A stretch of 54,793 nucleotides of DNA. Source: Candidatus Collierbacteria bacterium (GTDB lineage: Bacteria > Patescibacteriota > Microgenomatia > UBA1400 > MFAQ01). The notes beneath the pieces are model-generated. The model was not told where the DNA came from. It was given only the letters and a program-made list of their open reading frames with translations, and did no database searches. The stretch lies in assembly GCA_903886255.1 (NCBI GenBank), contig CAISLM010000033.1, forward strand, positions 1 to 54,793, read 5' to 3'. Shown here one piece after another: positions 9,420-54,793 of this stretch (its first letter is position 1; every line of letters starts with the position of its first letter). The position numbers were made by a program, and so were the translations under genes.

Positions 9420-9782
9420 TCATCCAAAGATCCTCTTTATTCTCCCCGAAATTTTGTCTGTCCATTCGGAAGCCCATTCTTCGGCCTTGATTCTCTTGAT
9501 CATTTCCTGCCATCCTGAATTCCCCAAATCTTCGGCTACAGACGCGATAGTGGCCGAGCTTACCTTCACATTGTTTTTTATATCTTCATAACTTCGTCCC
9601 TTGTCTAAATACACTGCAATTCCCAATCTCTTCAAAATTGCCATTCTTTCACCCTCGGTCAGAACATCATTCAAAACCATCTTTATTTCTTCCGGAGTAT
9701 CCAGCTCCGCCAATATTCCATACATCATCTCCGACAGTTGTTTCTCGATATTTTTGTTAAGGGGGTTGTTTGAAAGTTGCAT
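9420..9782 (-). CDS. TrpR-like (YerC/YecD) helix-turn-helix protein
   Basis: LTEGERMAILKRL...GRSYEDIKNNVKVSSATIASV, typical of the Trp-repressor family. Confidence 0.88.
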   Translation of the reverse strand: MQLSNNPLNKNIEKQLSEMMYGILAELDTPEEIKMVLNDVLTEGERMAILKRLGIAVYLDKGRSYEDIKNNVKVSSATIASVAEDLGNSGWQEMIKRIKAEEWASEWTDKISGRIKRIFG

Positions 9783-11275: not shown

Positions 11276-11308
11276 GATCAAGCTCCCCGGCTGTCAGGAA
11301 GCTTGATC
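11276..11308 (-). terminator. Intrinsic terminator between convergent rmuC and the Met-rich protein gene
   Basis: GATCAAGCT...AGCTTGATC inverted repeat followed by TTTT on the minus strand. Confidence 0.6.
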
Positions 11309-11317
11309 GTTACTCCG

Positions 11318-11506
11318 TTATTCTGCTTTCCAGTTCTCTTTGATCATCTTTTCGCTTTCTTCATCAGTCATCATTGGCGCATCTTTGTGCATCTCCATCA
11401 TGTGAGCATTTCCTTTCTCCTTCATCATTTTCATTGCCTCCATTTCATCATCGGCTTCAACCATCATCACCTCTTCACACATCGGGCATTTCATCGTATA
11501 TTTCAT
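11318..11506 (-). CDS. Small Met-rich CxxC/His protein (DUF1059-like)
   Basis: MKCPMC...AHMMEMH, with a strong SD (GGAGGTGA) upstream. Confidence 0.8.
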   Translation of the reverse strand: MKYTMKCPMCEEVMMVEADDEMEAMKMMKEKGNAHMMEMHKDAPMMTDEESEKMIKENWKAE

Positions 11507-11613
11507 AATTAACTCACCTCCATTCTGAATATCTTTGTTAATTAAACTGTCCTAACATTCATTATGTAATAATTCATACATCAAAGTCAATGCTCAAATC
11601 CGTGATCTAACAC

Positions 11614-11650
11614 CCTATAGCTTGACCTACACTGCCATTTGTGTCATAAT
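11614..11650 (+). promoter_or_regulatory. Sigma70-type promoter of orphan unit A
   Basis: CCTATAGC-TTGACC(11622-27)-N17-CATAAT(11645-50), with TTGTG extended -10. Confidence 0.7.
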
Positions 11651-11692
11651 CCGCCCAGTCTTTTAAACTCACCCTCTCACAACAGGAGAAAA

Positions 11693-12100
11693 ATGGAGAA
11701 CCTTAAATCCGAGAAAAAAGGCCTCAATTCGAGGCAAATTGTCGCCCTTGTGGCATTGATCATAGGCGTTGCTTCCATCGTAATATACTCGTTGATTACG
11801 GGAACTAGTTATTTGGGCAGCGTCGTTCCCGGCAATGTACTAGCCAACATCTGTGCCTATCTGTTTTTTGCATTTGCCGTCATCCATCTGATTACGATGG
11901 TCTTCAATGTCCGCCACAAAACGCCTGCTGCCATCGCCGTCATTAGCTGGTTATATGTAAGTTTTTCAATTATTATTAGTCCCCATTCGACAGTAATCGC
12001 ACCCAACCAGCCAATTGCCTTATGGTTATCTGCGATAGTCTATTTGGGCTGGCTAGTTGTATGCCTGAAAGATTTGTTTTTTCTGCTAGCCAATGTATAA
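11693..12100 (+). CDS. Hypothetical membrane protein (orphan unit A)
   Basis: SD AGGAG before ATG 11693 (MENLKSEKK); four TM segments. Confidence 0.75.
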   Translation: MENLKSEKKGLNSRQIVALVALIIGVASIVIYSLITGTSYLGSVVPGNVLANICAYLFFAFAVIHLITMVFNVRHKTPAAIAVISWLYVSFSIIISPHSTVIAPNQPIALWLSAIVYLGWLVVCLKDLFFLLANV

Positions 12101-12104
12101 GTTT

Positions 12105-12134
12105 AAGTCCCTGGAAATCCCGGGGACTTTTTTT
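12105..12134 (+). terminator. Intrinsic terminator of orphan unit A
   Basis: AAGTCCCTGG-AAATC-CCGGGGACTT, ending in a T7 tract. Confidence 0.8.
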
Positions 12135-12159
12135 ATCCACACAGCATACAATATGTTTA

Positions 12160-15123
12160 ATGTCACTCACTACCCCCGAATTTGATCAAGCATACAAACG
12201 ATTAAACGACGCCCAAAGAAAAGCCGTCGATACTATCGAAGGTCCCGTTTTAGTACTCGCTGGCCCCGGTACAGGCAAAACTCAAGTTTTGACAACCAGA
12301 ATTGCTAATATTTTAAAAGAAACCGATACCGACCCCAGCTCCATTCTCGCTCTAACCTTTACCGAAGCCGCCACCAAAGAAATGCGCACTCGTCTCATTA
12401 ACCTCATAGGCAAAGATGGCTATCTCGTTCAAGTCACCACCTTTCATTCTTTTTGTGCCGATGTCATCGCCCAAAATCCCGAAAGATTTAGTAAACCCGC
12501 CGGCATGCAGAATGTTTCCGATCTGGAAAAGATTCAAATCATTCAAGAGATTTTAGAACAGGGAACCTTTTCACTTCTTAAACCGATAGGCGATCCTCTC
12601 TTCTATCTCCCCTACATCTTAAGTAGCATCTCCGACCTCAAGCGCGAAGGCTTTACTGTCAGTAAATATTCCGAGCTGGTCTCCATTTTAAAAGACGAAT
12701 TTGAAATTGCCAAAGATGATCTCTCCAAGACTGCCAGATTAGAACAAGAAAAGCTTGTCAACAAAAATCTTGATCTCTTAGATGTCTACGAAAAATATCA
12801 AAATAAATTGACAGTACTCGGCCGCTTCGATTTCAACGATATGATCAACTGGGTGGTCGAGGCTTTTGAATCGGACGCAGATTTCCTTTTAGGTTACCAA
12901 GAAAAATTTCAATATCTTTTAGTTGATGAATATCAAGATACTAACTCCGCCCAAAACCGCCTCATTTTTGCCCTCACCAACTACTGGGGTCCGCAAGCTA
13001 ACATCTTTGCGGTGGGAGATCCCAACCAAAGTATTTTTCGTTTTCAAGGCGCCAGTAAAGAAAATATTGTCGAATTTGCCAAAGCTTTTCCGGACCACAC
13101 TAAAATTATTCTCGACCAAAGTTATCGCTCCACTCAAACAATACTCGACTCTGCGGCCAAACTGATAGGCGAGAGCCCTCTCCACGCCAATACTTCCCTG
13201 GAAGATATCCAAATAAAAACCGCCTCTTTCAACTCTACTATCTTTGAAGACGAATTTATCACGAGCTCCATCCAAGACAAAATCAAAAATGGTGTTAAAC
13301 CCAAGGATATTGCTATTATTGTCAAAGAAAACAAAGACGTTGATATCCTTATCAATCTTTTCAAACAAAAAAATCTTCCTTATCGTCTCGAGGGCGGCAC
13401 CAATATTCTTGCCACCCCTCTTATTAGTCAGTTCCTCAAAATCCTCAAAGTTGCCACCGCTCTTCACGATACTGTCGACGATCTCGACCTCTTTACTGTT
13501 TTAAATTTTGACTATTTCCATCTCAATCCTCTTTCCATTTTAAAAATTAGCCGAGAGGCTCATCTTAATCGGAAAACCTTATTTGACACTCTTCAAGATG
13601 ATCATCCGGAACTAGACGACGCCGTAGTCGAAGTCTATCTTCGCTTTGTTTCTTGGAACTCGAAAGCCGCCACCCACACTCTCCCCGAAATGTTTCAGCT
13701 GATTCTCCAAGAATCCGGAGTTCTCGAATATATCTTGGCCCTGCCCCAACCCATTATTGAATTAAATCGTTTCGGCACTCTCTTTGACGATGTCAAAACG
13801 CAATCCGCCTCTTTCCCTGACCTCAATCTTTTTGGCTACGTCAAGAATCTCCAGATCATGGAAGAAAATAATTTGAAACTGGAAGAACAAGTCTTGATTG
13901 GTAATGACGACGCTGTCACTTTGACCACTGCCCACAAAGCCAAAGGCTTAGAGTGGCAAACCGTTTTCATCTATCGTTTCGCCGATACTCACTGGGGCAA
14001 CAAAGCCAAAAGAGAAATGATCAAACTTCCTCCCGGCATTATTGTTTACGAGGATACGGATAAAGAAGATAAAAATGCCGAAGAACGCCGTCTCTTCTAT
14101 GTCGCTCTTACTCGGGCAAAACAAGAATTAATTCTCACCGGCTGCTCCGAATATCCCAGCTCCGCCAAGATGATTTTTCCTGCCATGTTTATTGCCGATC
14201 TGCCTCCCGAGAATCTAGAAAAAATCGACACTACCAAATTTGAAAAGACATCAGCCAAAATTCTTGCCGTCTTGATGTCACCGGCCCCGGAAGAAACACT
14301 TCACCCCGGTGAAGCCGACTATCTCCGAGAAATCATCCAAGACTTCAAGCTCTCACCCACCGCTCTTAATACCTATCTTCGCTGTCCCTACAAATTCAAA
14401 CTAGATAATCTCTATCGTATTCCGAGAGCCAAGGCCCCTGCCATGTGTTTTGGTACCGCCGTTCACTACGCTCTGGAAATGTTTTATCGCGAATTAAACA
14501 ATGGCCGATTGGAATCGATAGACACCTTCATCAAAGATTTTTCCGCCGCTCTGAGAAGAGAAATCATGACCGAAACAGATTTCAAAGACAGGTTAGCCCA
14601 TGGCAAAAAAGTTCTTACCAACTACTACAACAAATACAAGGAAGAATTTACCAGTTGTCTCTTCACCGAAAAAAGTTTTGGTACTTCTCTCACTTCCCAA
14701 ATTCATCTTGACGATATTCCCTTAACCGGCAAGGTCGACCGCATTGATCTGACTAGCAAAGAAGATAAACATGTTGGTGTCGTCGATTACAAAACAGGAA
14801 AACCCAAAACCAGAGGTGAGATTGAAGGCGCGACCAAAAACTCCGATGGCGACTACAAACGTCAGCTCACTTTCTATCACCTCCTTGCCGATCTGGATAA
14901 ATCCTTCCAGTACAAAGTCCTCGAAACCGAGCTTGATTTCATCGAACCGGATGCCAAAGGGGATTTCCATCGCGAAAGATTTATGATCACTCCCGATGAA
15001 GTAAATATTCTAAAGGGAGTCATCAAAGAATCCATGCAGAAAATCCGCGCCCTCGACTTCACCCGCACCGACGATTTAAATAAGTGTTCCACCTGTCCAT
15101 TTAGAAGCCACTGTCAAAGATAG
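12160..15123 (+). CDS. UvrD/PcrA-type SF1A helicase fused to C-terminal PD-(D/E)XK nuclease (AddA/AdnAB-like)
   Basis: AGPGTGKT, VDEYQD, VGDPNQSIFRFQGA, HKAKGLEW, YVALTRA; nuclease GKVDRID...VDYKTG; Cys in RCPY plus CSTCPFRSHC. Start at ATG 12160 because the longer frame crosses a terminator. Confidence 0.92.
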   Translation: MSLTTPEFDQAYKRLNDAQRKAVDTIEGPVLVLAGPGTGKTQVLTTRIANILKETDTDPSSILALTFTEAATKEMRTRLINLIGKDGYLVQVTTFHSFCADVIAQNPERFSKPAGMQNVSDLEKIQIIQEILEQGTFSLLKPIGDPLFYLPYILSSISDLKREGFTVSKYSELVSILKDEFEIAKDDLSKTARLEQEKLVNKNLDLLDVYEKYQNKLTVLGRFDFNDMINWVVEAFESDADFLLGYQEKFQYLLVDEYQDTNSAQNRLIFALTNYWGPQANIFAVGDPNQSIFRFQGASKENIVEFAKAFPDHTKIILDQSYRSTQTILDSAAKLIGESPLHANTSLEDIQIKTASFNSTIFEDEFITSSIQDKIKNGVKPKDIAIIVKENKDVDILINLFKQKNLPYRLEGGTNILATPLISQFLKILKVATALHDTVDDLDLFTVLNFDYFHLNPLSILKISREAHLNRKTLFDTLQDDHPELDDAVVEVYLRFVSWNSKAATHTLPEMFQLILQESGVLEYILALPQPIIELNRFGTLFDDVKTQSASFPDLNLFGYVKNLQIMEENNLKLEEQVLIGNDDAVTLTTAHKAKGLEWQTVFIYRFADTHWGNKAKREMIKLPPGIIVYEDTDKEDKNAEERRLFYVALTRAKQELILTGCSEYPSSAKMIFPAMFIADLPPENLEKIDTTKFEKTSAKILAVLMSPAPEETLHPGEADYLREIIQDFKLSPTALNTYLRCPYKFKLDNLYRIPRAKAPAMCFGTAVHYALEMFYRELNNGRLESIDTFIKDFSAALRREIMTETDFKDRLAHGKKVLTNYYNKYKEEFTSCLFTEKSFGTSLTSQIHLDDIPLTGKVDRIDLTSKEDKHVGVVDYKTGKPKTRGEIEGATKNSDGDYKRQLTFYHLLADLDKSFQYKVLETELDFIEPDAKGDFHRERFMITPDEVNILKGVIKESMQKIRALDFTRTDDLNKCSTCPFRSHCQR

Positions 15124-16712: not shown

Positions 16713-17057
16713 GTGCAAATCAATAAACTCCTCATCGTCTGTTCCCACAACAAATGGCGCAGCCCCACAGCCGAAAATCTTTACCACCATGACCCTCGTG
16801 TTTTCGTCCGCTCTGCTGGTTTGAGCTCTCATTCTCCCCACGTTCTCTCCAAGGCAGATCTCCAATGGGCCGATCTCCTTTTATATATGGAAAAAGATCA
16901 CCTCGAACGCATCAAAGCCATTTTTCCGGATACTCCACTTCCCAAATCCATCAATCTCGACATTCCCGATGGCTACACCTACATGGATCCCGAGCTCGTG
17001 GAAATACTTCACGACAAAATCGAAACCATCATTGCCAGCCCCACGATATTGGCATAG
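16713..17057 (+). CDS. Low-molecular-weight protein-tyrosine-phosphatase-like protein
   Basis: P-loop VCSHNKWRSPTAE, SAG, WADL, LDIPD.Y.YMDPEL. Confidence 0.88.
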   Translation: MQINKLLIVCSHNKWRSPTAENLYHHDPRVFVRSAGLSSHSPHVLSKADLQWADLLLYMEKDHLERIKAIFPDTPLPKSINLDIPDGYTYMDPELVEILHDKIETIIASPTILA

Positions 17058-17690: not shown

Positions 17691-17849
17691 ATGGCCAAAA
17701 ACAAAGGTAGGGTTGGTGCCGTAGACGATAGAGTTCAATATTTCAACCCGAAAACTAAAGAATGGGTTAAGGCTGATACAAAAACCGGTAAATTCATGGA
17801 CGTAAAAACCACCGGAGGAAATTTCAAGGGCGTCAAAAAACAAAAGTGA
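17691..17849 (+). CDS. Small basic hypothetical protein, 52 aa (not in ORF track)
   Basis: MAKNKGRVGAVDDRVQYFNPKTKEWVKADTKTGKFMDVKTTGGNFKGVKKQK, preceded by TTGACA(17654-59)-N17-TAATAT. Confidence 0.8.
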   Translation: MAKNKGRVGAVDDRVQYFNPKTKEWVKADTKTGKFMDVKTTGGNFKGVKKQK

Positions 17850-17869: not shown

Positions 17870-17907
17870 GATAAAAAAAGTCCCGGGATAAATCCCGGGA
17901 CAAAAAA
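17870..17907 (-). terminator. Intrinsic terminator of orphan unit B
   Basis: GTCCCGGGAT-TT-ATCCCGGGAC followed by T7 on the minus strand. Confidence 0.85.
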
Positions 17908-18855
17908 CTATCCGATTTCGATACGACCCATTCCTGTTCGGATATTCTTAATTACCTTCAAACATCTATTAACTTTTATACCACCCATTCCGTGTACTTC
18001 GAACGAGCCAACATCTGCCAGCCCGTCATGTTCAAAACTTCCCATGCTGGAATCATAAACGCTCAGATTGTTGACAGTTCCACCATCAAACACAACACCA
18101 CCATGACCGGACATGAAAATTTTGGCTGTTTTGAGCTGAACTTCGTCGACATTTATACCACCCATTCCAGTCATGTGTGCTGTCAGAGTTCCCGACAAGG
18201 AATTGATAGACACTCCTCCATGACCCTCGATTTCGACATCGGCAGAAGTTACTGCTACCCGCTCTGCCTCGAAACCACCCATACTTGTAATTTTCAAGGA
18301 CAAGGTTCCAAATAGTGAATCGGCGTAAAACCCCCCATGACCGGCCAGGTCAATGTAAGAGTTACCCGTCACCTTGCCGACATTGAGGCTCCCCATTCCG
18401 CCAACCTCGACCTTTAGGTTGGCGAACGACATCCCCTGGATGCTCATCATGCTGGTGCTTCGCAGGGTCAAACTCCCCCCGTTATTTTTGAAATTCATCG
18501 ATCCCAGGGCGTACTGGCCCAGCTCGATCTCTGCAGTCCAAGGTAGACTGATCGAAATATCAAGCTTTTTGGCCTCATCCAGCTTCACCCCATTTACAAT
18601 CCAGGTCTTGTTTGAATGGGACACGTTCACTTGATATTCGTCGACTTCAACCCCGGGGAGCTTCCCCGCGATGAAGATTGTGTCGCCACTTAGTGTGACT
18701 TCCACCACACGTCTCATTTCTTCGCACCCGTTTATCGTTACCACGATTTCGCGTGCGGCATTGAACGAGATTTTGAAATCGGCAAAAATCGTGCCTAAAT
18801 TCAAACATCGAGCAAACTGTCGTACAACACGCGGTTCGTCTTTTGGACTATTCAT
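17908..18855 (-). CDS. GIN/DUF2807-like beta-helix repeat protein (orphan unit B)
   Basis: Repeats of about 19-20 aa centred on xMG/GHG. SD GAGGAGG precedes ATG 18855 (MNSPKDEP). Confidence 0.75.
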   Translation of the reverse strand: MNSPKDEPRVVRQFARCLNLGTIFADFKISFNAAREIVVTINGCEEMRRVVEVTLSGDTIFIAGKLPGVEVDEYQVNVSHSNKTWIVNGVKLDEAKKLDISISLPWTAEIELGQYALGSMNFKNNGGSLTLRSTSMMSIQGMSFANLKVEVGGMGSLNVGKVTGNSYIDLAGHGGFYADSLFGTLSLKITSMGGFEAERVAVTSADVEIEGHGGVSINSLSGTLTAHMTGMGGINVDEVQLKTAKIFMSGHGGVVFDGGTVNNLSVYDSSMGSFEHDGLADVGSFEVHGMGGIKVNRCLKVIKNIRTGMGRIEIG

Positions 18856-18912
18856 TTCGAGCCTCCTCACAACAGAATAGGTTGTTAAAGTATATCCATT
18901 CGAACAGGCAAA

Positions 18913-18949
18913 ATCATACCACAATTACGCACAAAAGTCAAGCTATAGG
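18913..18949 (-). promoter_or_regulatory. Sigma70-type promoter of orphan unit B
   Basis: Minus strand CCTATAGC-TTGACT-N17-TATGAT, with TTGTG extended -10. Confidence 0.72.
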
Positions 18950-18963
18950 CTTACCGAATAGCC

Positions 18964-19392
18964 TTATTTCTTCGCCGGCTTCATAGCCATCATCATTCCC
19001 ATTCCCTGAGCAAAATCAAATACGATAGCCATAAGCAACACAATCCACCATGCGGCAATTCCCAGTCCAAATTGATCCGGTAGTCTGGCTATAATCCACA
19101 AACTCACGAAATCAATAACGAGGTATCCCACCATCCACTCCATTTTTGTTAGCATTCTGCCCTTCATCCTTTGCCAATTTTCAAACAGTGGCACAGCCAG
19201 AGTCCCAATAATCGACAAAATCAAGGCGCTATGGAATATTGCCCAGCCCAAATTAAAATTTGCCGTTCCCAAGACGATAGCTCTTGGAAAAAGAAAAGTG
19301 GCAACAGTAATTACAATCGCATTGACAATAAACTGAGTAAAAAAACCAATCGCCATTTGGCCAGAGGTAGTCACAGGTAAATCTTCTTTCAT
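18964..19392 (-). CDS. Hypothetical membrane protein
   Basis: 142 aa, four TM segments. Confidence 0.75.
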   Translation of the reverse strand: MKEDLPVTTSGQMAIGFFTQFIVNAIVITVATFLFPRAIVLGTANFNLGWAIFHSALILSIIGTLAVPLFENWQRMKGRMLTKMEWMVGYLVIDFVSLWIIARLPDQFGLGIAAWWIVLLMAIVFDFAQGMGMMMAMKPAKK

Positions 19393-19456
19393 TTGTGAAA
19401 TATATTACTAATAACTACAGTCTATCATGGTTATTGTTAAAGATCTAAAATATCTC

Positions 19457-23824: not shown

Positions 23825-24811
23825 ATGAATAAAATGATAAACAATCATAAGAATAAATCGGCAGATGGTACCAAGTTGAAGGTATTTGAAGCATTTGCTG
23901 GTTATGGAGGCGCTTCTTTTGGGCTTAAAAGAGCAAAAATTCCTTTCGAAGTAATTGGGTACTCAGAGAACGATAAGTTTGCAATTGAACTTTATGATAA
24001 TAATCATCCGGGAATATTAAACTATGGAGATATAACCAAGATTAATCCGAACGACATTCCGGATTTTGACCTAATCACTGGTGGATTTCCTTGTCAACCA
24101 TTTTCACAAGTCGGATTGGGTAAAGGTGAAGCGGACATTAGAGGTACTTTGTTTCATGATTTGATCAGAATCTGCGAGGTGAAGAGGCCAAAACATATAC
24201 TATTTGAAAATGTAAAGGGCTTGAGTACAGCGAGACATGGAAAGACATTGGAAACTATTGTAAAAAGTTTGCAAAAGCTTGGCTATGATGTAATCTGTGA
24301 ACTCCTAAACACAAAAGACTATGGTATTCCGCAAAATAGGCAAAGGTTATGGATTTACGGATATCACGGGACTTTACCATTAACATTTCACCTGGCCCCA
24401 CCGAAAAAGAAGATGGAATTATATTTCAAGGATTTTCTTGATAAGAAGCCAGATGAGGCACTTTTCAAAAATCAGGTGGAGATTGAGCGACTCAAAGAAC
24501 TGTACGGACTTGACTTTATAGTTAAAGAACCATCGTGCGCGGATCTTTACAACAAGAATATTCGTAGTGATGGAATTAGTATTACTCTTCTCGAACCCCA
24601 TCACAATAAAATGAGAGTTGTTCACCCACCCAAAAACAATGAATTACGTGTGAGAAAATATTCGATAACCGAGCATTTTCGTCTTATGGGATTCAAAGAC
24701 GGGGAAATTAATTTCGGCGGCCAATCATATCAACAATTGTGCAAAAGAGCAGCAAATGGATGGGATATTAATTTAGTATCACTTATATTCAAGCAAATTT
24801 TTCAGCAGTAG
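23825..24811 (+). CDS. DNA (cytosine-5)-methyltransferase
   Basis: Motif I FAGYGG, IV GGFPCQPFS, VI ENVKG, VIII PQNRQR, IX RLMGF. Confidence 0.95.
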   Translation: MNKMINNHKNKSADGTKLKVFEAFAGYGGASFGLKRAKIPFEVIGYSENDKFAIELYDNNHPGILNYGDITKINPNDIPDFDLITGGFPCQPFSQVGLGKGEADIRGTLFHDLIRICEVKRPKHILFENVKGLSTARHGKTLETIVKSLQKLGYDVICELLNTKDYGIPQNRQRLWIYGYHGTLPLTFHLAPPKKKMELYFKDFLDKKPDEALFKNQVEIERLKELYGLDFIVKEPSCADLYNKNIRSDGISITLLEPHHNKMRVVHPPKNNELRVRKYSITEHFRLMGFKDGEINFGGQSYQQLCKRAANGWDINLVSLIFKQIFQQ

Positions 24812-25684
24812 TGTAGCCTTGCCATATACCACTACATTTTCGTGAAAATATTTGATAGGTAGAGGTTGAGCCCTATCTATTAGTAGCGATAAAGTGTCCT
24901 CACTATACATATTGAATCGTACTTGTCGGTAGTGAATACGGCTATCATTTCTGATCTCAATTTCCACTATATTTTTTGCCCGTACAGGAGTTTTCATATA
25001 GCAAAGTAGTGTTTTTTGCCCAGCAACATTGTAGTCTTCTGGAACACGACCGGCGATCGATATCGAAGGAAACAGCTCTGAAGATAAAATGTCTAGAACG
25101 TCTTCCCTTGCGAAGATTTTAAATAATCCGTCTTTTTTGTAGGTGTCATCTTTTATTGCCAGGAATTCAACCTCCCCACTGTTAAAAAGTGCTTCGTCCA
25201 GGAACTTATGCAGAAAATCCTTATTTTTCAATGCACTACAGGTAGAGATTGTGGTTTTTGCAAGCTGGTTTTTTGATTCGACATAGGCATTGGCGCCCAA
25301 TTGCTTGATGACAACTTCATTGGATAGGCGACGTGTTGCATCTTTACCATGGTTCTTAACATATCCTTCTTTAAAAGAGATACATTTTGTGCGGTCTTTT
25401 ACATACTGATTGAAATCTTTAGGAAATGCGTCTAGACATGGTCGCAAAATGTTAAGGTAACGGCTTTCACAGATCCTTTCATAGCCATAGAGAAACACTT
25501 GCCATTTCTTTCCGCTTTTTACCGAGTGAAGGTTTCCGATTTTGTCTTTTACATCACCCTTTTGGGTTCCATTAATCACCTTTCCCCCAATCAGTGTTGC
25601 ATAGTCACCTTCACGCTGATGACCACCAAGTTTTTTATCACTTGATACCTTACTTGATGGCGCCCGTCTTCGATTTATTGTCAT
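24779..25684 (-). CDS. Putative type II restriction endonuclease
   Basis: Convergent and overlapping with the C5-MTase; PD-(D/E)xK-like E...KGDV...SVK. Confidence 0.55.
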   Translation of the reverse strand: MTINRRRAPSSKVSSDKKLGGHQREGDYATLIGGKVINGTQKGDVKDKIGNLHSVKSGKKWQVFLYGYERICESRYLNILRPCLDAFPKDFNQYVKDRTKCISFKEGYVKNHGKDATRRLSNEVVIKQLGANAYVESKNQLAKTTISTCSALKNKDFLHKFLDEALFNSGEVEFLAIKDDTYKKDGLFKIFAREDVLDILSSELFPSISIAGRVPEDYNVAGQKTLLCYMKTPVRAKNIVEIEIRNDSRIHYRQVRFNMYSEDTLSLLIDRAQPLPIKYFHENVVVYGKATLLLKNLLEYK

Positions 25685-30482: not shown

Positions 30483-30956
30483 ATGACATTAAAAGTTGGC
30501 GACAAAGTTCCGGATATTTCTCTGCCGGATCAGAACGGCAAAGAAAGAAAACTATCCGATTATCAAAAAAAATATTTACTACTGTATTTCTATCCCAAAG
30601 ATTTCACTTTTGGTTGCACCAAAGAGGCCTGTAATTTTCGCGATTCTTTCCACAATTTCAATCCTAACGTTATTACAGTTATTGGTGTTAGTACCGACTC
30701 TGTCGAAAGTCACAAAAAATTTGTTGACGAATATTCGTTACCATTTTCACTACTGGCAGACACGGAAAAAAAGATGGTTCAAGCCTTTGGAGTTTGGCAG
30801 CCCAAAAAAATCTTCGGAAAGGAAATCGTCGGGACTGTTCGTACCTCTTTTCTCATCGACCCCAAAGGAGTGATCGCCAAAGTTTACGAAAGGGTAAACC
30901 CGCTTGCCCACGCCGGTGAGGTGGAAAAAGATCTTCAGTCTCTCGCTAAACTCTAA
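30483..30956 (+). CDS. bcp: Peroxiredoxin BCP/PrxQ
   Basis: YFYPKDFTFGCTKEAC, RTSFLID. Confidence 0.95.
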   Translation: MTLKVGDKVPDISLPDQNGKERKLSDYQKKYLLLYFYPKDFTFGCTKEACNFRDSFHNFNPNVITVIGVSTDSVESHKKFVDEYSLPFSLLADTEKKMVQAFGVWQPKKIFGKEIVGTVRTSFLIDPKGVIAKVYERVNPLAHAGEVEKDLQSLAKL

Positions 30957-31002
30957 ATTGGTATAAAATACCCTTAAATCTTGCACCTTTATAGGAGGAG
31001 TA

Positions 31003-31623
31003 ATGCTCACTCGTGAATATTACGATGAATGGACAGCGGTTGGTGAATTAATCGCCGATGGTGGTTTAATTGGCAGAAGCGATCTTTATGCAATCTACGA
31101 TAACCTTGATATCGGCCATATCAGACCAGACTATTTACCCACTGAAAAAAACGTAAACGGCAAAACTTCCGAACGGAAAATTGCCGACTTCTTAACTGTT
31201 CAGAAACTCTGGGACCATGCTCCAGACGACTGGTTGGTAATTGAACAGACTCGTCTCAAAGAAGCCCGGGAAATAAGTGGCAGCACGGAAACGGGTGGAA
31301 AAGACAGTCTCTACGATGTGGTTTCCACCGAAATATTACTGCGGATTTTTGCTGCGGCCAAACTTGTCACCGAAGATAAATATGACAAGGAAATATCTGA
31401 TGAAGCCATCCGTGCCCTCAACCTCTATCTTTCCGAGGTCTGTGCAAGGGGCCGTACCCGGATGATGATGATTGATGGACAATCGGTTTACAGCAAATTG
31501 AAAAAGGGAGGTCTTTTGATCGGTTCCGGTGGCAGATACTTACCCAACCCGAAACGGGGCTTACCCTTCCTGCTGGTTCTCCTAAATAAAGAGTCGGTTA
31601 ACCCCGACGCCTATCAGAAATAA
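31003..31623 (+). CDS. Hypothetical protein (orphan unit E)
   Basis: SD AGGAGGAG; own terminator downstream. Confidence 0.75.
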   Translation: MLTREYYDEWTAVGELIADGGLIGRSDLYAIYDNLDIGHIRPDYLPTEKNVNGKTSERKIADFLTVQKLWDHAPDDWLVIEQTRLKEAREISGSTETGGKDSLYDVVSTEILLRIFAAAKLVTEDKYDKEISDEAIRALNLYLSEVCARGRTRMMMIDGQSVYSKLKKGGLLIGSGGRYLPNPKRGLPFLLVLLNKESVNPDAYQK

Positions 31624-31632
31624 ATTTTTCCC

Positions 31633-31658
31633 AACCCACTCAATTGAGTGGGTTTTTT
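31633..31658 (+). terminator. Intrinsic terminator
   Basis: AACCCACTC-AATT-GAGTGGGTT plus T tract, between convergent genes. Confidence 0.8.
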
Positions 31659-31908
31659 ATTTTCTTCTGTTTGCCTCTTGTATCGTTTTAATTGACCAAA
31701 GCAGGTCGTGAGGTTCCCCGAATAGTTTCCTGTTTAATTTTTTCCAGCCGCTTTCGGGCATTTTTTTCGATCCGAGTGACAATTTTCCATCAATTCTTTG
31801 TGTGTAATAAACGACACCTTCCTCGTCATTTCTCATAAACCAGCCAATATAATTGCAATCTTTGCAGCCAAATCCTTCACAGTTTTGACATTGTATTGGT
31901 GTAATCAT
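31657..31908 (-). CDS. Small DnaJ-type zinc-finger protein
   Basis: MITPIQCQNCEGFGCKDCNYIGW; ATGA overlap with the Clp stop codon. Confidence 0.7.
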   Translation of the reverse strand: MITPIQCQNCEGFGCKDCNYIGWFMRNDEEGVVYYTQRIDGKLSLGSKKMPESGWKKLNRKLFGEPHDLLWSIKTIQEANRRK

Positions 31909-34046
31909 GTTATTTTTATACCGGCTGGGCTCCAATTAATAGTTTGCCCCGAAGCAACTTGGTTTCTAATTATCATTTCCGATATAGGGGTTTCAATCGC
32001 CTCCTTTATTGCTCTTTCAATCGACCTTGCCCCAAACTTTTGATCGGCATTATTTTTAACAAAAGTATCCATATCATTTTCGGCGATTTCCAACTTTATT
32101 CCCTTATCCGTCAAAACGTGTTCCAAATTTCCGAGTTTGAGTCTGGCAATCTTTTTAAATGGTTCTAGGCTTAATGGATTGAAAATAATTATTTCATCAA
32201 ACCGGTTGATCATCTCAATCCGGAAATAATTTTTTATCAGCGGTAAAATCGTTTGCTGATACAGAATTTGTTTATCAATAGCCGGGTCTTTAGTCACCGC
32301 AGCGAAGATTTCTTCGGCTCCGATATTACTGGTAAATATTAATATTGTATTTTTAAAATCCACTAAATTCCCCTTTGAATCCGTTAACCTTCCTTCATCA
32401 AGTATTTGTAGAAAAATATCAAAAACTTTCGGGTGAGCCTTCTCAATTTCATCAAATAATACCAAACAATAAGGTTTCTTTAATACTGCATTTGTTAGCT
32501 GGCCTCCCTCATCATAGCCGACGTATCCCGGGGGTGAACCGATAAGCCGCATGACAGTATTTGGTTCTGAAAATTCAGACATATCCAAGCGGATAAATGC
32601 TTTTTCGTCACCAAAATATTTGCTCCCCAGTGTTTTTGCCAATTCCGTTTTTCCCACACCGGTGGGACCAAGAAATAAAAATGATCCAATCGGTTTTTTT
32701 GGGTCCTTTAGACCTGAACGGGAGCGCCTTATTGCTTGCGATATCAGTTTGATTGCTTCATCTTGACCAATTACTTTTTCGGATAGAACTTGCTCCAGAT
32801 TACTCAAAACATCCTTCTCCGACTCTGTTAATTTAGCAAGCGGTAAATTTGTTTTTTGGGCTATCACATCCATGAGGATGTCTTCCGATATGGCCGATTT
32901 ACCACTAATTCTCGCTTGTGCAGCCAGTTCGGAAATTAGTCCAATTGCTTTTTCCGGGAAAGCTATGCCCGGCAAATATCTTTTTGACATTTCATAAATC
33001 TTTTCTCCCAGTCCTTGTTCGTTTCCAATTTTCTCCGACTCACTCAGCTGTTTCAGTTTGAAATCGATGACCTTTAAAATCGTCGATTTGTCCATCTCAT
33101 CAATTGAAATTTTATTCAATCGTTGTAATTCCGGGCGGTTTTCCAAAAATGTTTTATAAAAAGAATCTTCAGTCAAGATGATAGTTTTTACTTCTGTTTG
33201 ACTTCGAATTGTCTCTATTAAATCCAGTGCCACTTTCCAATCGGATTCAAAAAATTCAATCCCTTTTATAATTAATATCACCGGTTCGTTTGCCTGAATT
33301 TCTTCGATACTTGACTGCACCACAGCATCAATTTTTTCATTTGACCCCACCAAAGATGAAAGTTCCATTTTATAAACACTCGTAAACCGGAAGTCGGGAA
33401 TATTTGTTCTCAAAGTCTTTAACGCGTTCATAACCGAGGCAAATGCATCGACTCCTCTTCTGGCCAAAATAATCAAACCGGTCGATTCTTTTACCGACAA
33501 TCCCCGGATAATCTGTTCGTAATAAACATCAAAAAAACGATTATATCCGTCCTCATCTATCGGTCGCTCAAGAACTCCGGATAAGTCGGACGATATCTTG
33601 GATTTTCTTTTAATAAAAATCAAATCGGCGCATTTGCCCCAACCGGGATTTGCCTTAATAAGATTTACAATTCTTGGCATAGAAATTCCCGCCATTAAAA
33701 TATCCTCCGGCTCCGTCAACTGACCCACTTTCTTCATAAATGCATTTATGATCATTATTTTTGCCTCCGGAGCCAAAAAAATCATATCAGTGAAATCCTT
33801 CTTATACCCATGGCTCAATTCGCCGGAATATTTTTTGCCAAATTCAAAATCGGAATCACTAATGTTACTTGAATATTCACTTGAAAGAAACGCTTGAAGG
33901 AATATATCTACTTCGGAGATAACGGATTGTTTTTGTCCTTTACAATACTCGACCGATTTTTCTATAACACTCAAGACCTTATCACTTAGCAAAGGAGAAA
34001 TATCTTTTGACACGCCCGTTTGCGGCATCGAATTATTACTATCCAT
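31905..34046 (-). CDS. Clp/Hsp100 AAA+ ATPase with degenerate NBD1 and intact NBD2
   Basis: NBD2 has GQDEA, GPTGVGKT, RLDMSE, PPGYVGY, LFDEIEKAH, GRLTD, GAR. NBD1 Walker motifs are eroded. Confidence 0.9.
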   Translation of the reverse strand: MDSNNSMPQTGVSKDISPLLSDKVLSVIEKSVEYCKGQKQSVISEVDIFLQAFLSSEYSSNISDSDFEFGKKYSGELSHGYKKDFTDMIFLAPEAKIMIINAFMKKVGQLTEPEDILMAGISMPRIVNLIKANPGWGKCADLIFIKRKSKISSDLSGVLERPIDEDGYNRFFDVYYEQIIRGLSVKESTGLIILARRGVDAFASVMNALKTLRTNIPDFRFTSVYKMELSSLVGSNEKIDAVVQSSIEEIQANEPVILIIKGIEFFESDWKVALDLIETIRSQTEVKTIILTEDSFYKTFLENRPELQRLNKISIDEMDKSTILKVIDFKLKQLSESEKIGNEQGLGEKIYEMSKRYLPGIAFPEKAIGLISELAAQARISGKSAISEDILMDVIAQKTNLPLAKLTESEKDVLSNLEQVLSEKVIGQDEAIKLISQAIRRSRSGLKDPKKPIGSFLFLGPTGVGKTELAKTLGSKYFGDEKAFIRLDMSEFSEPNTVMRLIGSPPGYVGYDEGGQLTNAVLKKPYCLVLFDEIEKAHPKVFDIFLQILDEGRLTDSKGNLVDFKNTILIFTSNIGAEEIFAAVTKDPAIDKQILYQQTILPLIKNYFRIEMINRFDEIIIFNPLSLEPFKKIARLKLGNLEHVLTDKGIKLEIAENDMDTFVKNNADQKFGARSIERAIKEAIETPISEMIIRNQVASGQTINWSPAGIKIT

Positions 34047-34314
34047 TTTTGAAAAATACGGCGATTAATGTTACAACCCCCAAAAACAAAATAAAAAACA
34101 TAGAAACATACAAAATCACATTTCTTTTGATCATTTTTCTCCTGGCGAAGTCAACAAAACCGGGCAATCTTAAATAATTCTCTGTATTACTCTTAATAAT
34201 TTTTATTCCAATCCCATTGCATTTATCACATTTGTTGGCTGAATATAAAGGTGAGACTCCCCATCCGCCGCAAACAGGACAATATATGGTGTTTTTTGAT
34301 TGGGCAGACTCCAT
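34039..34314 (-). CDS. Small DnaJ-type zinc-finger membrane protein
   Basis: CPVCGGWG...CDKCNGIG plus a C-terminal TM helix; 8-bp overlap with the Clp start. Confidence 0.75.
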   Translation of the reverse strand: MESAQSKNTIYCPVCGGWGVSPLYSANKCDKCNGIGIKIIKSNTENYLRLPGFVDFARRKMIKRNVILYVSMFFILFLGVVTLIAVFFKNG

Positions 34315-36207: not shown

Positions 36208-36246
36208 CCTTACATTTTATCCTGTTTTAACCACAATAGGCATCAA

Positions 36247-36275
36247 TTGCTCCCCACAGGCTTATAACGTATAAT
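36247..36275 (+). promoter_or_regulatory. Sigma70-type promoter of orphan unit D
   Basis: TTGCTC-N17-TATAAT. Confidence 0.6.
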
Positions 36276-36313
36276 TCCTCAAAGTTTACCTTAAAATTTT
36301 ATAAGGAGAAGCC

Positions 36314-36616
36314 ATGATTACCCTTGGAGAAAAAGGAAAAGTTAAAGGGGAGGAATATCTGGTTCCTCTCGACGATCAAACTTATGCCCACCCGGAAAGT
36401 TTTGGCAAGCCAACATATTTCCCGATACTGAAACCTAAACAGTCGCTCGTGTGTGCCTTTCACCGCTTTGTAAAAGTTGATCTCTTTATCTGCGAAACCA
36501 TTGGTGATGTTCACTTGCTCTGGTATCTTCTCTACGATCGAGGTGCCGGCGAAAAACTCGAATGGTTCACCGGTTTCATTGAAAAAGGCATATTTTTTCC
36601 ACCATCCCGACCCTAA
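36314..36616 (+). CDS. Hypothetical protein (orphan unit D)
   Basis: SD AAGGAG; own promoter and terminator. Confidence 0.7.
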   Translation: MITLGEKGKVKGEEYLVPLDDQTYAHPESFGKPTYFPILKPKQSLVCAFHRFVKVDLFICETIGDVHLLWYLLYDRGAGEKLEWFTGFIEKGIFFPPSRP

Positions 36617-36632
36617 CCGGTCGGGTTTTTTC
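36606..36632 (+). terminator. Intrinsic terminator
   Basis: CCCGACC-CTAACC-GGTCGGG followed by T7. Confidence 0.75.
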
Positions 36633-43573: not shown

Positions 43574-45202
43574 TTACAAAGCTAGCAGAATTCCCACTAC
43601 GGCCATGAACAATCCTCCACCAAAGGCAGCTACGCCGGGGATATCAAGGACTCCGGTTTCAGGTAACACTGTGGGAGTAACTGTTGTTGGAGCTGCGGTG
43701 ACCACTGCAGTAGCAGTAGCGATTGCTCTTGTTGCGGTAGGAATGATCGCGACAGCACAAGTACAATCATCTTCACTAGTACAGGCCTGTTTACGACAGG
43801 TACTGGTTGTGGTATCGCAGACTAGACCTGTTGAACATTCGTCGCTTGTAGTACAAGTATTGTTGCAGCCAACGACTGTGCTTACAGTCAGATCTTTTGT
43901 AAGAGCTAACGGATTGCCGTTGTAGGTGACATTAGCGGTGTTGGAAATAATATCTCCATTAGCTATTCCGGCCGATGCTCTCACTCTTAATGAGAATGTC
44001 TTTGATTGATTGGGATCGATCGAAGTATTGCAAGTAAGCATCAAGGCCGAATTATCCCAAGTACAACCATTTACTGTATCTACAAAAGTCAACATGGCAA
44101 GGCTTGCCAACGAATCTTTTACTGATACTCCGGTTGCTTGAGTCGTACTCGAATTTGTCAATGTCATTGTGTAAACATAAGTCTGTCCTTTGGATACTGT
44201 GGCCATTTCTGTTGCCAGGGCATAGTTGCCGGGAGTATTGGTAGATACATCTTTGTAGGCGGTCTTTGTTCCGGTAAGAACAGCAGTGGTAGCCGTCACG
44301 GCGGCAGTCAAAGTATTGGTTCCTTGCAATGTTTGTCCGGCATACACAGCTGAGAAAGTGTTGACGATGGATGTTCCATCCGTAATATCTCCTGCAACTT
44401 TCACTCTGAAGCCTTTTCCATAAGTTCCGGATGCAATGGATACATTTGTGCAAGTAACTGTTCTAGTTGCAGCAGCATAAGTGCATCCTGTATCGGCATC
44501 TAAGAAAGTTAACTTATCAAGGTTTGTTCCGGTTAAAACATCTGTCAAGGTCACACCTGTCATAGTTGTAGTCAATGGATTTGTAACCCACATTTCATAT
44601 ACATAAGTTTCATTAGGAATTACTGTTGCACCATCACCAGTCTTCTTAAGAGCATCGGTATGAGAATATGAACCGGCAGTATTTGTAGATGCATTTGTGA
44701 AAGCCTCTTTGCTAACTGTCCAAGAAGCACAAGCCGCCGTCGCTGCGCAAGCTTTTGTTGTTGCTGCCCCACACGAATCAGTGCAGGTTGTAATTGTTGA
44801 AGCAGCATGTCCACAATCGGTAGGACAATCGGGATTACAAGTTACCACGTCGGTAGGAGTACATATTGGAGAAGCTACCCCTGCCACTGTGCAAGCCGCA
44901 CTACCCACCCAGTTGGAAACACATAGTCCATTTAATGCAGTCTGATCTGCCGGACAGCACCAAAGTACCCCGGTCGCTCCATTGGCCGGAATTGTATTGT
45001 CGCATTGGGCCGCTCCCGAAATTTGGGTTCCGGAACAATTTAATCCTGAGGCACAAGACTCAAAAGCTGCCGGTTTACTCGTTGGGGCATTTGGCGACAC
45101 TGATGGTCTGGATGTTAGCTGAGTCGCTACATATATAGAAGCTCCACCCAAAATCACTACTAGCAGAACGAGGATGATGGTTATAATATTTTTCTTTTTC
45201 AT
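43574..45202 (-). CDS. Cys-rich surface protein with two DUF11-like Ig domains and LPETG-TM tail
   Basis: N-terminal TM, Cys-rich modules, two K.A...Y.Y.....N...TGV...D repeats, C-terminal LPETG plus hydrophobic segment. Confidence 0.85.
   Translation of the reverse strand: MKKKNIITIILVLLVVILGGASIYVATQLTSRPSVSPNAPTSKPAAFESCASGLNCSGTQISGAAQCDNTIPANGATGVLWCCPADQTALNGLCVSNWVGSAACTVAGVASPICTPTDVVTCNPDCPTDCGHAASTITTCTDSCGAATTKACAATAACASWTVSKEAFTNASTNTAGSYSHTDALKKTGDGATVIPNETYVYEMWVTNPLTTTMTGVTLTDVLTGTNLDKLTFLDADTGCTYAAATRTVTCTNVSIASGTYGKGFRVKVAGDITDGTSIVNTFSAVYAGQTLQGTNTLTAAVTATTAVLTGTKTAYKDVSTNTPGNYALATEMATVSKGQTYVYTMTLTNSSTTQATGVSVKDSLASLAMLTFVDTVNGCTWDNSALMLTCNTSIDPNQSKTFSLRVRASAGIANGDIISNTANVTYNGNPLALTKDLTVSTVVGCNNTCTTSDECSTGLVCDTTTSTCRKQACTSEDDCTCAVAIIPTATRAIATATAVVTAAPTTVTPTVLPETGVLDIPGVAAFGGGLFMAVVGILLAL
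44729..44864. repeat. Cys-rich module, copy 1 (copy 2 at 45516..45651)
   Basis: 136-bp ungapped match; about 19 mismatches by hand count. Confidence 0.9.
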
Positions 45203-45203
45203 T

Positions 45204-53880: not shown

Positions 53881-53910
53881 AAATACCCGGATCAAAGCGC
53901 ACCCAAATAC

Positions 53911-53948
53911 CCTATATATTTGACTTTTAGGCACTTTTGTGATACCAT
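53911..53948 (+). promoter_or_regulatory. Sigma70-type promoter of orphan unit C
   Basis: CCTATATAT-TTGACT(53920-25)-N17-TACCAT(53943-48), with TTGTG extended -10. Confidence 0.68.
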
Positions 53949-53999
53949 ACCATCATCCAATTCAACCTATTCGCACCTGAAAAAAGAGAGGAAAATTAA

Positions 54000-54602
54000 A
54001 TGGAACCTACCATGGAAGGGCTTCTGAATCTTTACGCTCGTTTCTGGTTTGGCGGTCGGCAGGCCGTTTACGCCATCAGAGAGCGCAAGTTGACGAACGT
54101 CTACCCTGCTCATCTCACAGATCGCTCGAACCGGTTAACCTGCCAAAAACTGGCCGTTGATTTTCCCGAAAATGGCTGTCCCCAGACCATTGTCTTCGAA
54201 AAAGACGACACTTTGGAGCAGTGGACCCAGACAAACATCATAAACGGCGTCACATACACGACTCGGGAACTGATCGATTTCGCTGAGAAGATGGCCCATT
54301 CACTTCCTGGTGACTATCATGCGCCTGTCCCCACCATGGCCGATTTATGGGCCATTTATTTCTGTAACTATCCGGCCCTGGACTCGATCGTTCGGCCGCT
54401 TGTTTCAAGCGACGCGGATATATATCCGTTTGTCGTCACCTACCCAAACACCCGTTACCCGGCCGATTTGGTCGTTACCTCGAAATACGGAGAAACGCTC
54501 GTTATTCGGCCTGATTCAAACGAAATGGATCCTAATTATTTTTATGACTTATCCAAGTCTGACTGGATCAGTCTGCAAGATGTTATTTCCTTTTTAGGTT
54601 AG
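54000..54602 (+). CDS. Hypothetical protein (orphan unit C)
   Basis: GAGAGG SD, 200 aa, own terminator. Confidence 0.75.
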   Translation: MEPTMEGLLNLYARFWFGGRQAVYAIRERKLTNVYPAHLTDRSNRLTCQKLAVDFPENGCPQTIVFEKDDTLEQWTQTNIINGVTYTTRELIDFAEKMAHSLPGDYHAPVPTMADLWAIYFCNYPALDSIVRPLVSSDADIYPFVVTYPNTRYPADLVVTSKYGETLVIRPDSNEMDPNYFYDLSKSDWISLQDVISFLG

Positions 54603-54609
54603 TAAAACC

Positions 54610-54635
54610 AAACACCTCCACCCGGAGGTGTTTTT
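54610..54635 (+). terminator. Intrinsic terminator
   Basis: AAACACCTCC-ACCC-GGAGGTGTTT, ending in a T tract. Confidence 0.8.
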
Positions 54636-54700
54636 ATTAAAAATGAAAGTGATATAATACCCCATAACTTCATTTTCTATGTTCTTTAATAGGAGACCTG

Positions 54701-54793
54701 ATGGACAAACAAAATCCTCATGCGATTGGGCCGAGTGAAAAACTGACTCCTCAACAGCTTTTAGAACGTTATTTACTTTTCCACGTCTCCAGC
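54701..54793 (+). CDS. Hypothetical protein, 3'-truncated (orphan unit F)
   Basis: TG-A-TATAAT (54653-58), SD AGGAG, ATG 54701 MDKQNPHAIG..., open to the window end. Confidence 0.6.
   Translation, partial: MDKQNPHAIGPSEKLTPQQLLERYLLFHVSS

Follow-up and report, generated by a model that had tools for sequence, protein, structure and literature searches.

A sequence box beside the -35 element of single-gene units in variable slots of a Candidatus Collierbacteria genome: a possible accessory regulon

The stretch of DNA analysed here, referred to as the window, comprises 54,793 nt of Candidatus Collierbacteria bacterium (assembly GCA_903886255.1, contig CAISLM010000033.1, positions 1-54,793 of the forward strand), an uncultured, tiny-genome bacterium of the Microgenomates-type Patescibacteria. 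Three of its genes, designated units A, B and C, encode unrelated proteins and are each preceded by a promoter with the same short box just upstream of the -35 element. In related genomes, the box is again found before small genes located in variable slots. A preliminary description of the window had left the choice between dispersed gene cassettes and a regulon of accessory genes. The reading we favour, although we regard it as an even call, is that these promoters form a lineage-specific class, that they probably share a cis-site, and that the genes behind them make up a small accessory regulon of insulated single-gene modules in variable slots.

Unrelated genes with a common promoter box

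Units A and B contain, exactly as first described, the 13-mer CCTATAGCTTGAC at 11614-11626 (+) and 18937-18949 (-), respectively. In each case it runs into a -35 element, which is followed by a 17-nt spacer ending in TTGTGn and by a -10 element. The arrangement claimed for unit C (TTGACT, 17-nt spacer ending in TTGTGA, TACCAT) was recovered as well; it is headed by the same box, offset by one base. By their elements, A and B (10/12 matches with TG) and C (9/12) are sigma-70/sigma-A promoters with an extended -10. Among 17 promoter-like sites between 11200 and 19500, only those of A and B reach 10/12 plus TG before the -10.

The box has the consensus AATACCCTATAG and is located 2-4 nt upstream of a near-consensus -35 element TTGAC(T), with TTTAGG often found 3' of the latter. 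A 17-nt spacer ending in TRTGn and a -10 element follow. Behind the promoter, the units have a leader of 35-50 nt with a strong Shine-Dalgarno (SD) sequence, and an intrinsic terminator after the stop codon.

The repeated exact 13-mer is by itself not remarkable: with up to two mismatches, CCTATAGCTTGAC gives two matches, a number reached by 16 of 100 shuffles. The composite motif CCTATA-N2-4-TTGAC occurs three times in the window, compared with 0.02 expected, and none of 100 shuffles reaches three. Within the window the motif is thus not at chance frequency, a possibility that had been raised at the outset. The box accompanies only 3 of 45 sigma-70-like matches and is absent from all other gene-upstream regions listed for the window. 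It is therefore non-random, is found at none of the other promoters surveyed there and heads unrelated, near-orphan genes, in line with the first description. Over 48 aligned positions the window promoters agree in 26 (A-B), 29 (A-C) and 28 (B-C) nt.

A further 10-mer, CAACCTATTC, had been pointed out in the leaders of B and C. It is indeed present in both, at distances of 28 nt (B) and 14 nt (C) from the -10. With up to one mismatch allowed, 4 matches are found where 4.4 are expected, and the sharing is probably due to chance.

Several other identities of the box were considered and rejected. A dyad operator CCTAWA...TWTAGG around the -35 is at odds with half-site spacing, which varies by 8-10 nt, and the promoters of A, B and the L002 A-slot unit (see below) lack the right half. 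The box would make a poor -10 element of a tandem promoter, having C or A instead of T in position 6. Some likeness to phage-type (T7/SP6-like) promoters on the opposite strand (...CTATAGGG) was also noted; at B and C such promoters would read antisense into the neighbouring genes. Finally, CCTATA has 8 copies in the window where dinucleotide shuffles predict 17.8. Specific avoidance of the hexamer is not supported, since a fourth-order Markov model (Markov-4) over 177 kb gives 34 observed and 33 expected, hence no depletion.

Conservation of the box in related genomes

All sequences used are metagenome assemblies. The motif survey covers the window (~55 kb) and ~170 kb of relatives (~225 kb together), and the profile search covers the window and 30 loci. 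The nearest relatives are metagenome-assembled genomes labelled Woesebacteria or Collierbacteria, some of the labels being evidently wrong. In the UvrD-like helicase encoded at 12160-15123, these relatives share 76-84% amino-acid identity with the window and remoter ones 58-66% (loci L001-L011); next to the A-slot units described below, the helicase is 81-84% identical, and L009 shows 65%.

The composite motif was detected once each in L001, L002 and L003, always directly 3' of rmuC, and is absent from 26 of the 30 loci. In these three genomes it heads a small hydrophobic SD-led open reading frame (ORF) in the slot between rmuC and the helicase gene, which is the slot of unit A. The three proteins are clearly related to one another and 12-19% identical to the unit A protein; no tblastn link to the latter was obtained, nor any other tblastn match to it in the relatives. 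Unit A may thus be replaced cargo rather than a diverged orthologue. When the four A-slot units are aligned at the DNA level, the longest invariant block consists of CCTATA and TTGAC. The spacer, the leader and most of the coding sequence vary, so that box and -35 stay invariant while the sequence around them drifts.

A profile built from six promoters retrieved eight sites with E <= 1.4e-6, the next match having E = 0.57. The two new sites carry the box variant CCCATAAC and are located just 3' of a low-molecular-weight (LMW) phosphotyrosine phosphatase gene, before a 117-aa (amino acid) ORF in L001 and a 182-aa ORF in L002. No relationship links these ORFs to one another or to A, B or C, and neither belongs to a Pfam family. 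Their promoters are homologous (34/48), and the homology ends inside the spacer. In L009, a homologue of B (26% identity) is preceded by TTTAGCC-N5-TGTGG-TAATAT, which represents the spacer and -10 of the family; the contig breaks off where the -35 and a box would be expected. The family consensus can be written approximately as AATACCCTATAGC-TTGACTTTTAGGC-...-TGTGG-TATACT. Unit C has the promoter nearest to it and, with the A-slot promoter of L001, forms the closest pair of all (36/48); the window A and L001 A promoters agree in 31/48. Runs common to promoters of one genome comprise, besides the 13-mer of A and B, a 14-mer in the promoters L002 A and L002 b.

Two of the boxes overlap stop codons. 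TAG of CCTATAG in L003 (9280-9286) is the rmuC stop, and TAA of CCCATAAC in L001 (14968-14975; CCCATAA variant) is that of the phosphatase gene. The phosphatase gene itself is intact in the window (16713-17057) and in L001, while L002 (15525-15662) and L004 (6436-6530) retain an N-terminal remnant; the L002 remnant runs directly into the box promoter. CCTATAG was also noticed near promoters of unit E orthologues (L003 17772, L006 15271), where the geometry is different and the profile E values are 15-35. These occurrences were not counted. In L004, the segment 7595-7650 (CCTATAAATTGACTTACAC...TGTGTCCTCATAAA) resembles the unit A promoter, from which it differs in a spacer longer by about 10 nt and in the lack of an ORF behind it. 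Its neighbours are a MerR gene on one side and the 3' end of a CxxC-protein gene on the other, and it may be a relic of a lost unit.

Variable slots

The slots compared in relatives were rmuC-helicase, phosphatase-downstream, femX-pcrA, the unit E locus and the stretch from the helicase to the gene at 19427. Units C and F occupy a further slot, 3' of lepA. Empty alleles or swapped cargo, anticipated for such loci in the preliminary description, were seen at rmuC-helicase and femX-pcrA. The genes rmuC and helicase are adjacent in seven relatives. An A-type unit separates them in three (L001-L003), a different small ORF on the other strand in L004, and at most ~35 nt in the remaining three (L005, L006, L010), where the slot is empty. 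The helicase is accompanied in L009 by nothing but a homologue of the 62-aa ORF that diverges from unit A, and in L007 by a homologue of the window gene 18964-19392.

Unit D is located between femX and pcrA, and none of the four relatives having both flanks contains it. In L004 and L006 its place is taken by an unrelated ORF of ~45 aa that is SD-led and has a TTGACA promoter; L003 has an ORF on the opposite strand, and L005 129 nt without any ORF of at least 25 aa. The first ~25 nt of the slot are alike in the window, L004 and L006, although the cargo differs. The L006 ORF (17970-18110) has a strong SD sequence (AGGAGG) and no ATG, GTG or TTG at the expected distance. Translated from ATC, it yields 45 aa resembling the 46-aa ORF of L004, and it may use a non-canonical start.

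Unit E had been proposed as mobile cargo as well. This is not supported, since it is located between a DUF167 gene and a femAB pair in all four relatives that have both flanks. Its terminator stem is kept in L001, L004 and L006 and altered in L003. These comparisons point to vertical inheritance of the unit. In the window, E is flanked by bcp (30483-30956) and the clp operon (31655-34314; clp, a small Cys-rich ORF and a zinc-finger ORF). Both are absent from the E locus in L001, L003, L004 and L006, so the apparently conserved neighbours of E are the variable part there.

The stretch between the helicase and the gene at 19427 differs in gene content in every relative. A MerR-family gene followed by a very small Cys-rich ORF is found in L001 (15567-15980), L003 (13800-14280) and L004 (7040-7528), always on the minus strand. 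The pair has a promoter whose 19-nt spacer holds the palindrome TTCCAGTnACTGGAA, and it occupies the place of unit B and gene 18964-19392 of the window.

Cargo proteins

That the units encode unrelated proteins, as had been claimed, is confirmed: A, B and C cargo are mutually unrelated and near-orphan. From its hydrophobic sequence, the product of A is read as a putative membrane protein. The beta-helix assignment of B agrees with its DUF2807 match (E 8e-11), which is the only family obtained for the cargo from Pfam, NCBIfam, PADLOC and PHROGs. In a word-indexed search, A and B match only themselves, and C has one relative (80%). A full phmmer search with C returned seven proteins, itself included, among 1.84 billion representatives. 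The predicted model of C has a pLDDT (predicted local distance difference test) value of 90 and no neighbour in the PDB (best E 0.12); the ESM Atlas yielded no usable result for A or C. A search of 50,697 phage records left B, C and E unmatched, PHROGs gave no match for the eight proteins tested, and the sole PADLOC match is weak (E 0.0095).

The G+C content of third codon positions (GC3) is 0.56 in C, 0.54 in the 62-aa ORF, 0.52 in B, 0.50 in A, 0.47 in E and 0.42 in D, with a window mean of 0.41 (standard deviation 0.07). No integrase or transposase was detected with NCBIfam models among the 58 window ORFs, in agreement with the earlier observation, and among the repeats listed for the window there are no flanking, terminal or direct repeats at unit ends.

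Terminators

The hairpins behind A, B, C, D and E have folding energies from -13.3 to -21.5 kcal/mol (z from -3.4 to -6.0) and the characters of intrinsic terminators. The arms of the A and B terminators are nearly identical, as described initially. The pair extends over 21 nt at 90% identity, 7 of the 21 nt belonging to the T-run. When the 25 longest out of 140 inverted pairs are listed, it ranks first by identity. Since other pairs among those 25 reach 86%, it stands at the edge of the chance distribution, and its likeness exceeds chance only weakly. In L001 and L002, the A-slot units are followed by a terminator with a TCCCCGG/CCGGGGA stem. Such stems are common only to A, these positional counterparts and B. 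The D and E terminators are their own and unrelated, so that a terminator frame common to all units, as initially envisaged, could not be upheld.

The hexamer CCCGGG, which makes up the stems of the A and B terminators, is over-represented in the window and L001-L006 (177 kb; 42 observed, 27 expected under Markov-4, z = 2.9). A 51-aa basic ORF of no family found (17691-17846, +) converges on unit B and ends at its palindromic hairpin, which may act in both directions. With a TTGACA-17-TAATAT promoter just 8 nt ahead of the ATG, this ORF looks leaderless.

SD-led units among predominantly SD-less genes

The upstream regions of most window genes, read one by one, give no sign of a leader. SD-led genes were defined by at least 5 nt of SD sequence at -18 to -4, and a TANNNT hexamer located 5-13 nt ahead of the start codon served as the sign of a leaderless gene. 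Of the 58 window genes only 7 are SD-led, and these are exactly A, B, C, D, E, F and the 62-aa ORF 11318-11506. The TANNNT hexamer is found upstream of 31 of the 51 other genes, compared with 41 of 326 internal in-frame ATG controls (Fisher p = 6e-13), and upstream of none of the seven SD-led ones. This -10-like hexamer before the start codon suggests leaderless mRNAs for the genes that have it. As most other genes have no SD and many have such a hexamer, the units form a separate expression class.

The layout of promoter, leader and SD ascribed to D, E and F is present, and so are the own terminators of D and E. None of the three carries the box, and their membership of the box family is not supported. 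The grouping of A to F by layout is nevertheless meaningful, because apart from the 62-aa ORF they are the only SD-led genes.

The alternative organization is well illustrated by the UvrD-like helicase gene, which has no SD and a TACAAT-type -10 (region 12140-12162) only 7-10 nt before its ATG. This -10 is kept upstream of the start in all relatives examined (L001-L006, L009), which suggests a leaderless mRNA. A similar layout is found at rpsT, rmuC, bcp, dcm and many other window genes. Start codons of core genes appear well placed in that tblastn alignments begin at residue 1 for most of them. In the relatives, apparent true starts with an SD, assessed by eye, again belong to slot genes, namely the A-type units, both ORFs of the phosphatase slot, the orthologues of E, the homologue of B and small ORFs in slots.

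As far as the excerpted text of PMC9297842 goes, loss of the anti-SD is reported only in some Parcubacteria, and bS21 is frequently absent in Collierbacteria. The literature searched contained no report, for Patescibacteria, of a promoter class like this one or of a division between core and accessory genes in SD use.

Feature coordinates and other observations

The features of units A to F and of the 62-aa ORF are collected in Table 1.

Table 1. Coordinates of unit features in the window (CDS, coding sequence)
Feature	Position	Strand	Description
Unit A upstream box	11610..11621	+	ACACCCTATAGC; core CCTATAG 11614-11620; invariant block in alignment with L001-L003 units
Unit A promoter	11622..11650	+	-35 TTGACC, 17-nt spacer (...TTGTGT), TGTG 11640-11643, -10 CATAAT; 10/12
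Unit A SD	11684..11688	+	AGGAG
Unit A CDS	11693..12100	+	135-aa hydrophobic protein, no family
Unit A intrinsic terminator	12105..12136	+	GTCCCTGG / CCGGGGAC stem + T7; -16.8 kcal/mol
62-aa ORF diverging from unit A	11318..11506	-	own -35/-10, leader, SD GGAGG, terminator 11276-11308; no box
Unit B upstream box	18943..18949	-	CCTATAG
Unit B promoter	18913..18941	-	-35 TTGACT, 17-nt spacer ending TTGTGG, -10 TATGAT; 10/12
Unit B SD	18862..18868	-	GAGGAGG
Unit B CDS	17908..18855	-	315 aa, DUF2807 (GIN head, beta-helix-like), E 8e-11
Unit B intrinsic terminator	17873..17901	-	palindromic GTCCCGGGA / TCCCGGGAC + T7; -21.5 kcal/mol
Unit C box promoter	53905..53948	+	AATACCCTATA-TAT-TTGACT-TTTAGGC...TTGTGA-TACCAT, CCTATA from 53911; 17-nt spacer; 9/12
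Unit C SD	53986..53992	+	GAGAGGA
Unit C CDS	54000..54602	+	200 aa, tiny family
Unit C intrinsic terminator	54613..54635	+	unrelated to A and B terminators
Unit D	36240..36631	+	TTGCTC-17-TATAAT, SD AAGGAG, 100-aa CDS 36314-36616, own terminator; no box
Unit E	30960..31655	+	extended -10 TGGTATAAA, SD AGGAGG, 206-aa CDS 31003-31623, terminator CCCACTC / GAGTGGG; no box
Unit F (cut by window end)	54645..54793	+	extended -10 TGATATAAT, SD AGGAG, ATG 54701; no box

The window has a G+C content of 41.6%, and NCBIfam and Pfam scans of its 58 ORFs recover housekeeping genes with weak, deep-branching scores. Several observations concern other parts of it. The longest ORF at 1513-2319 is overlapped at its 5' end by a tRNA-Cys gene (2253-2325, -), so its real start must lie further downstream. 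Two large neighbouring ORFs (43574-45232 and 45204-47183), one with a DUF11-type repeat, contain a direct repeat of 139 nt with 86% identity (44729-44867 / 45516-45654), which probably represents paralogous surface-protein domains. A gene for a C5 cytosine methyltransferase and a 301-aa ORF of no family overlap tail to tail at 23825-25684 and may be a restriction-modification pair. They lie in a stretch, at about 20.4-26 kb, for which the relatives' loci gave no homologue.

Interpretation of the box units

We propose that A, B and C would be insulated single-gene transcription units under one lineage-specific class of housekeeping-sigma promoter. The box spans positions -38 to -49 approximately, a region of DNA contacted by activators or by the alpha subunit of RNA polymerase. 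Owing to this position it is probably a functional cis-site conferring common control or strength on the genes. Function is also indicated by its survival where the surrounding neutral sequence has not survived, and conservation across species favours a functional cis-site. The same motif recurs in a comparable position at several unlinked promoters, above chance. A regulon is favoured because in ~225 kb the box stands only before poorly conserved, monocistronic, SD-led genes. A leader with SD would free expression from the exact -10-to-ATG spacing needed by a leaderless gene, which would explain its use by fast-turnover genes. Turnover of the slots could proceed by ordinary deletion, insertion or recombination rather than by dedicated cassette machinery.

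Several points weigh against an accessory regulon. The gap between CCTATA and TTGAC is 2, 3 or 4 nt, which is unusual for a fixed protein contact. The sole regulator-like gene in the window is a YerC/TrpR-like ORF (9420-9782), and nothing links it to the box. The independent promoter lineages number only about five, counting the A slot, B, C and, with its two cargos, the phosphatase slot, and absence of the box from housekeeping promoters rests on the ~55 kb of the window and ~170 kb of relatives. Part of the conservation could be coding, given the overlap with upstream stop codons in L001 and L003. Moreover, non-orthologous promoters are sometimes more alike than orthologous ones, a pattern that fits copying as well as selection.

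Copying is the essence of the next explanation, which we consider possible, though less likely: a portable expression frame, consisting of the promoter core and in A and B also the terminator, would be copied or recombined between slots. Different cargo would then be found behind the same promoter of ~25-45 nt, through reuse of promoters or integrase-free exchange at short homology. The phosphatase-slot promoters of L001 and L002 are of this kind, being homologous before unrelated ORFs, and the common start of the femX-pcrA slots is comparable. The empty rmuC-helicase slots, the putative relic in L004, the runs common to promoters of the same genome and the possible replacement of cargo in unit A also agree with it, as does promoter likeness that does not track orthology. 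On the other hand, neither a recombinase or transposase nor terminal or direct repeats were found at unit ends, and the likeness is short, as exemplified by A and B. No conserved 3' site exists either, terminators being common only to A, its positional counterparts and B. The B promoter type is kept in a genome as distant as L009, which indicates long-term retention instead of recent capture. Neutral copies should have decayed at such divergence, and yet the box persists. In a stronger version, the bacterium, leaderless by default, would keep box promoter, leader, SD and terminator as a standard frame without which new or rapidly evolving genes could not be expressed. The ~25-nt core would serve in addition as substrate for short-homology recombination, by which cargo is exchanged or deleted between slots, and the whole would be an integrase-free cassette system. 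This version seems to us rather unlikely.

An accessory regulon and cassettes can both be true. From the cassette side of the preliminary description, variable slots, empty alleles and different cargo stand, whereas the common terminator, membership of D to F and machinery like that of integrons or transposons do not.

Improbable, in our opinion, is that chance and generic signals account for the promoters. Strong promoters converge on TTGAC, TRTGn and TATAAT, and terminators on GC stems with T-runs. The -35, TRTGn and -10 of the units are indeed generic, and TRTG is described as the -16 motif of Bacillus-type promoters. The 13-mer is not rare, the 10-mer is at chance level, and the terminator pair is near the top of a broad chance distribution. 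The box, however, lies outside the generic elements, exceeds expectation by far, and recurs elsewhere: three other species have it in the syntenic place, and two more promoters carry it. For the box, the chance explanation is largely refuted.

Similarly improbable is recent acquisition of the SD-led units, with their own signals, from phages or SD-using donors: architecture with leader and SD unlike the host default, GC3 of most units above the window mean (D being at the mean) and near-orphan distribution would suit it, but B, C and E lack phage-record matches, PHROGs and PADLOC gave nothing firm, E is syntenic in all four relatives, and the box promoter is clade-specific and conserved within the clade.

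To our knowledge, almost nothing is known about gene expression in Patescibacteria, many of whose genes have no known function. The split suggested by the window is one between core genes that are leaderless and without SD and fast-turnover orphans in full promoter-leader-SD-terminator modules, some with the box. If it is genome-wide, accessory genes, possibly including those for host interaction, could be found from sequence only. The box is a candidate regulatory motif, and the slots allow gene gain, loss and replacement to be followed in metagenomes. A more general question is how newly gained genes are expressed where the default initiation needs exact promoter-to-ATG spacing.

Comparison with known systems

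Integron cassettes are promoterless and end in attC, which is used by the IntI integrase. The units resemble them in being single-gene, with variable and often orphan cargo between fixed landmarks, and in the occurrence of empty sites. They differ in that each has its own promoter and terminator, in lacking a conserved 3' site and an integrase among the 58 window ORFs, and in being dispersed and not arrayed.

Regulons in which an operator or activator site adjoins the -35 rely on class II-type activation or UP-like contact. The box is similar as a short conserved motif at several unlinked promoters, kept across species; its distance to the -35 varies by 2-4 nt. UP elements are A/T-rich tracts at -40 to -60 with the proximal consensus AAAAAARNR. 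The box occupies the corresponding position and, being A/T in 8 of 12 positions with a CCC core, differs from this consensus in composition.

Putative mobile promoters, defined by Matus-Garcia, Nijveen and van Passel (2012) by at least 80% identity over at least 50 nt at -150 to -50, are, like the box units, homologous promoter DNA before non-homologous genes, in a single genome as well as across related ones, with no known mobile element attached (PMC3575422). The box units remain below this threshold, with a core of 12-45 nt at 54-75% and 36/48 in the best pair, and unlike mobile promoters the box is conserved between species in the manner of a regulatory site. Correia elements, ERIC and REPIN are named in the same paper as promoter-bearing miniature repeats (PMC3575422). 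Such repeats can supply promoters and terminator hairpins to neighbouring genes. In contrast to miniature inverted-repeat transposable elements and Correia elements, the units show no terminal inverted repeats, target duplication or multi-copy body among the repeats listed.

Genomes with few SD sequences and many leaderless genes are familiar from Bacteroidota, Actinomycetota and Deinococcota. The window resembles them, an SD being absent from most of its genes and a -10 directly preceding the start codon in many. It departs from their picture in that its few SD-led genes are accessory, fast-evolving single-gene units.

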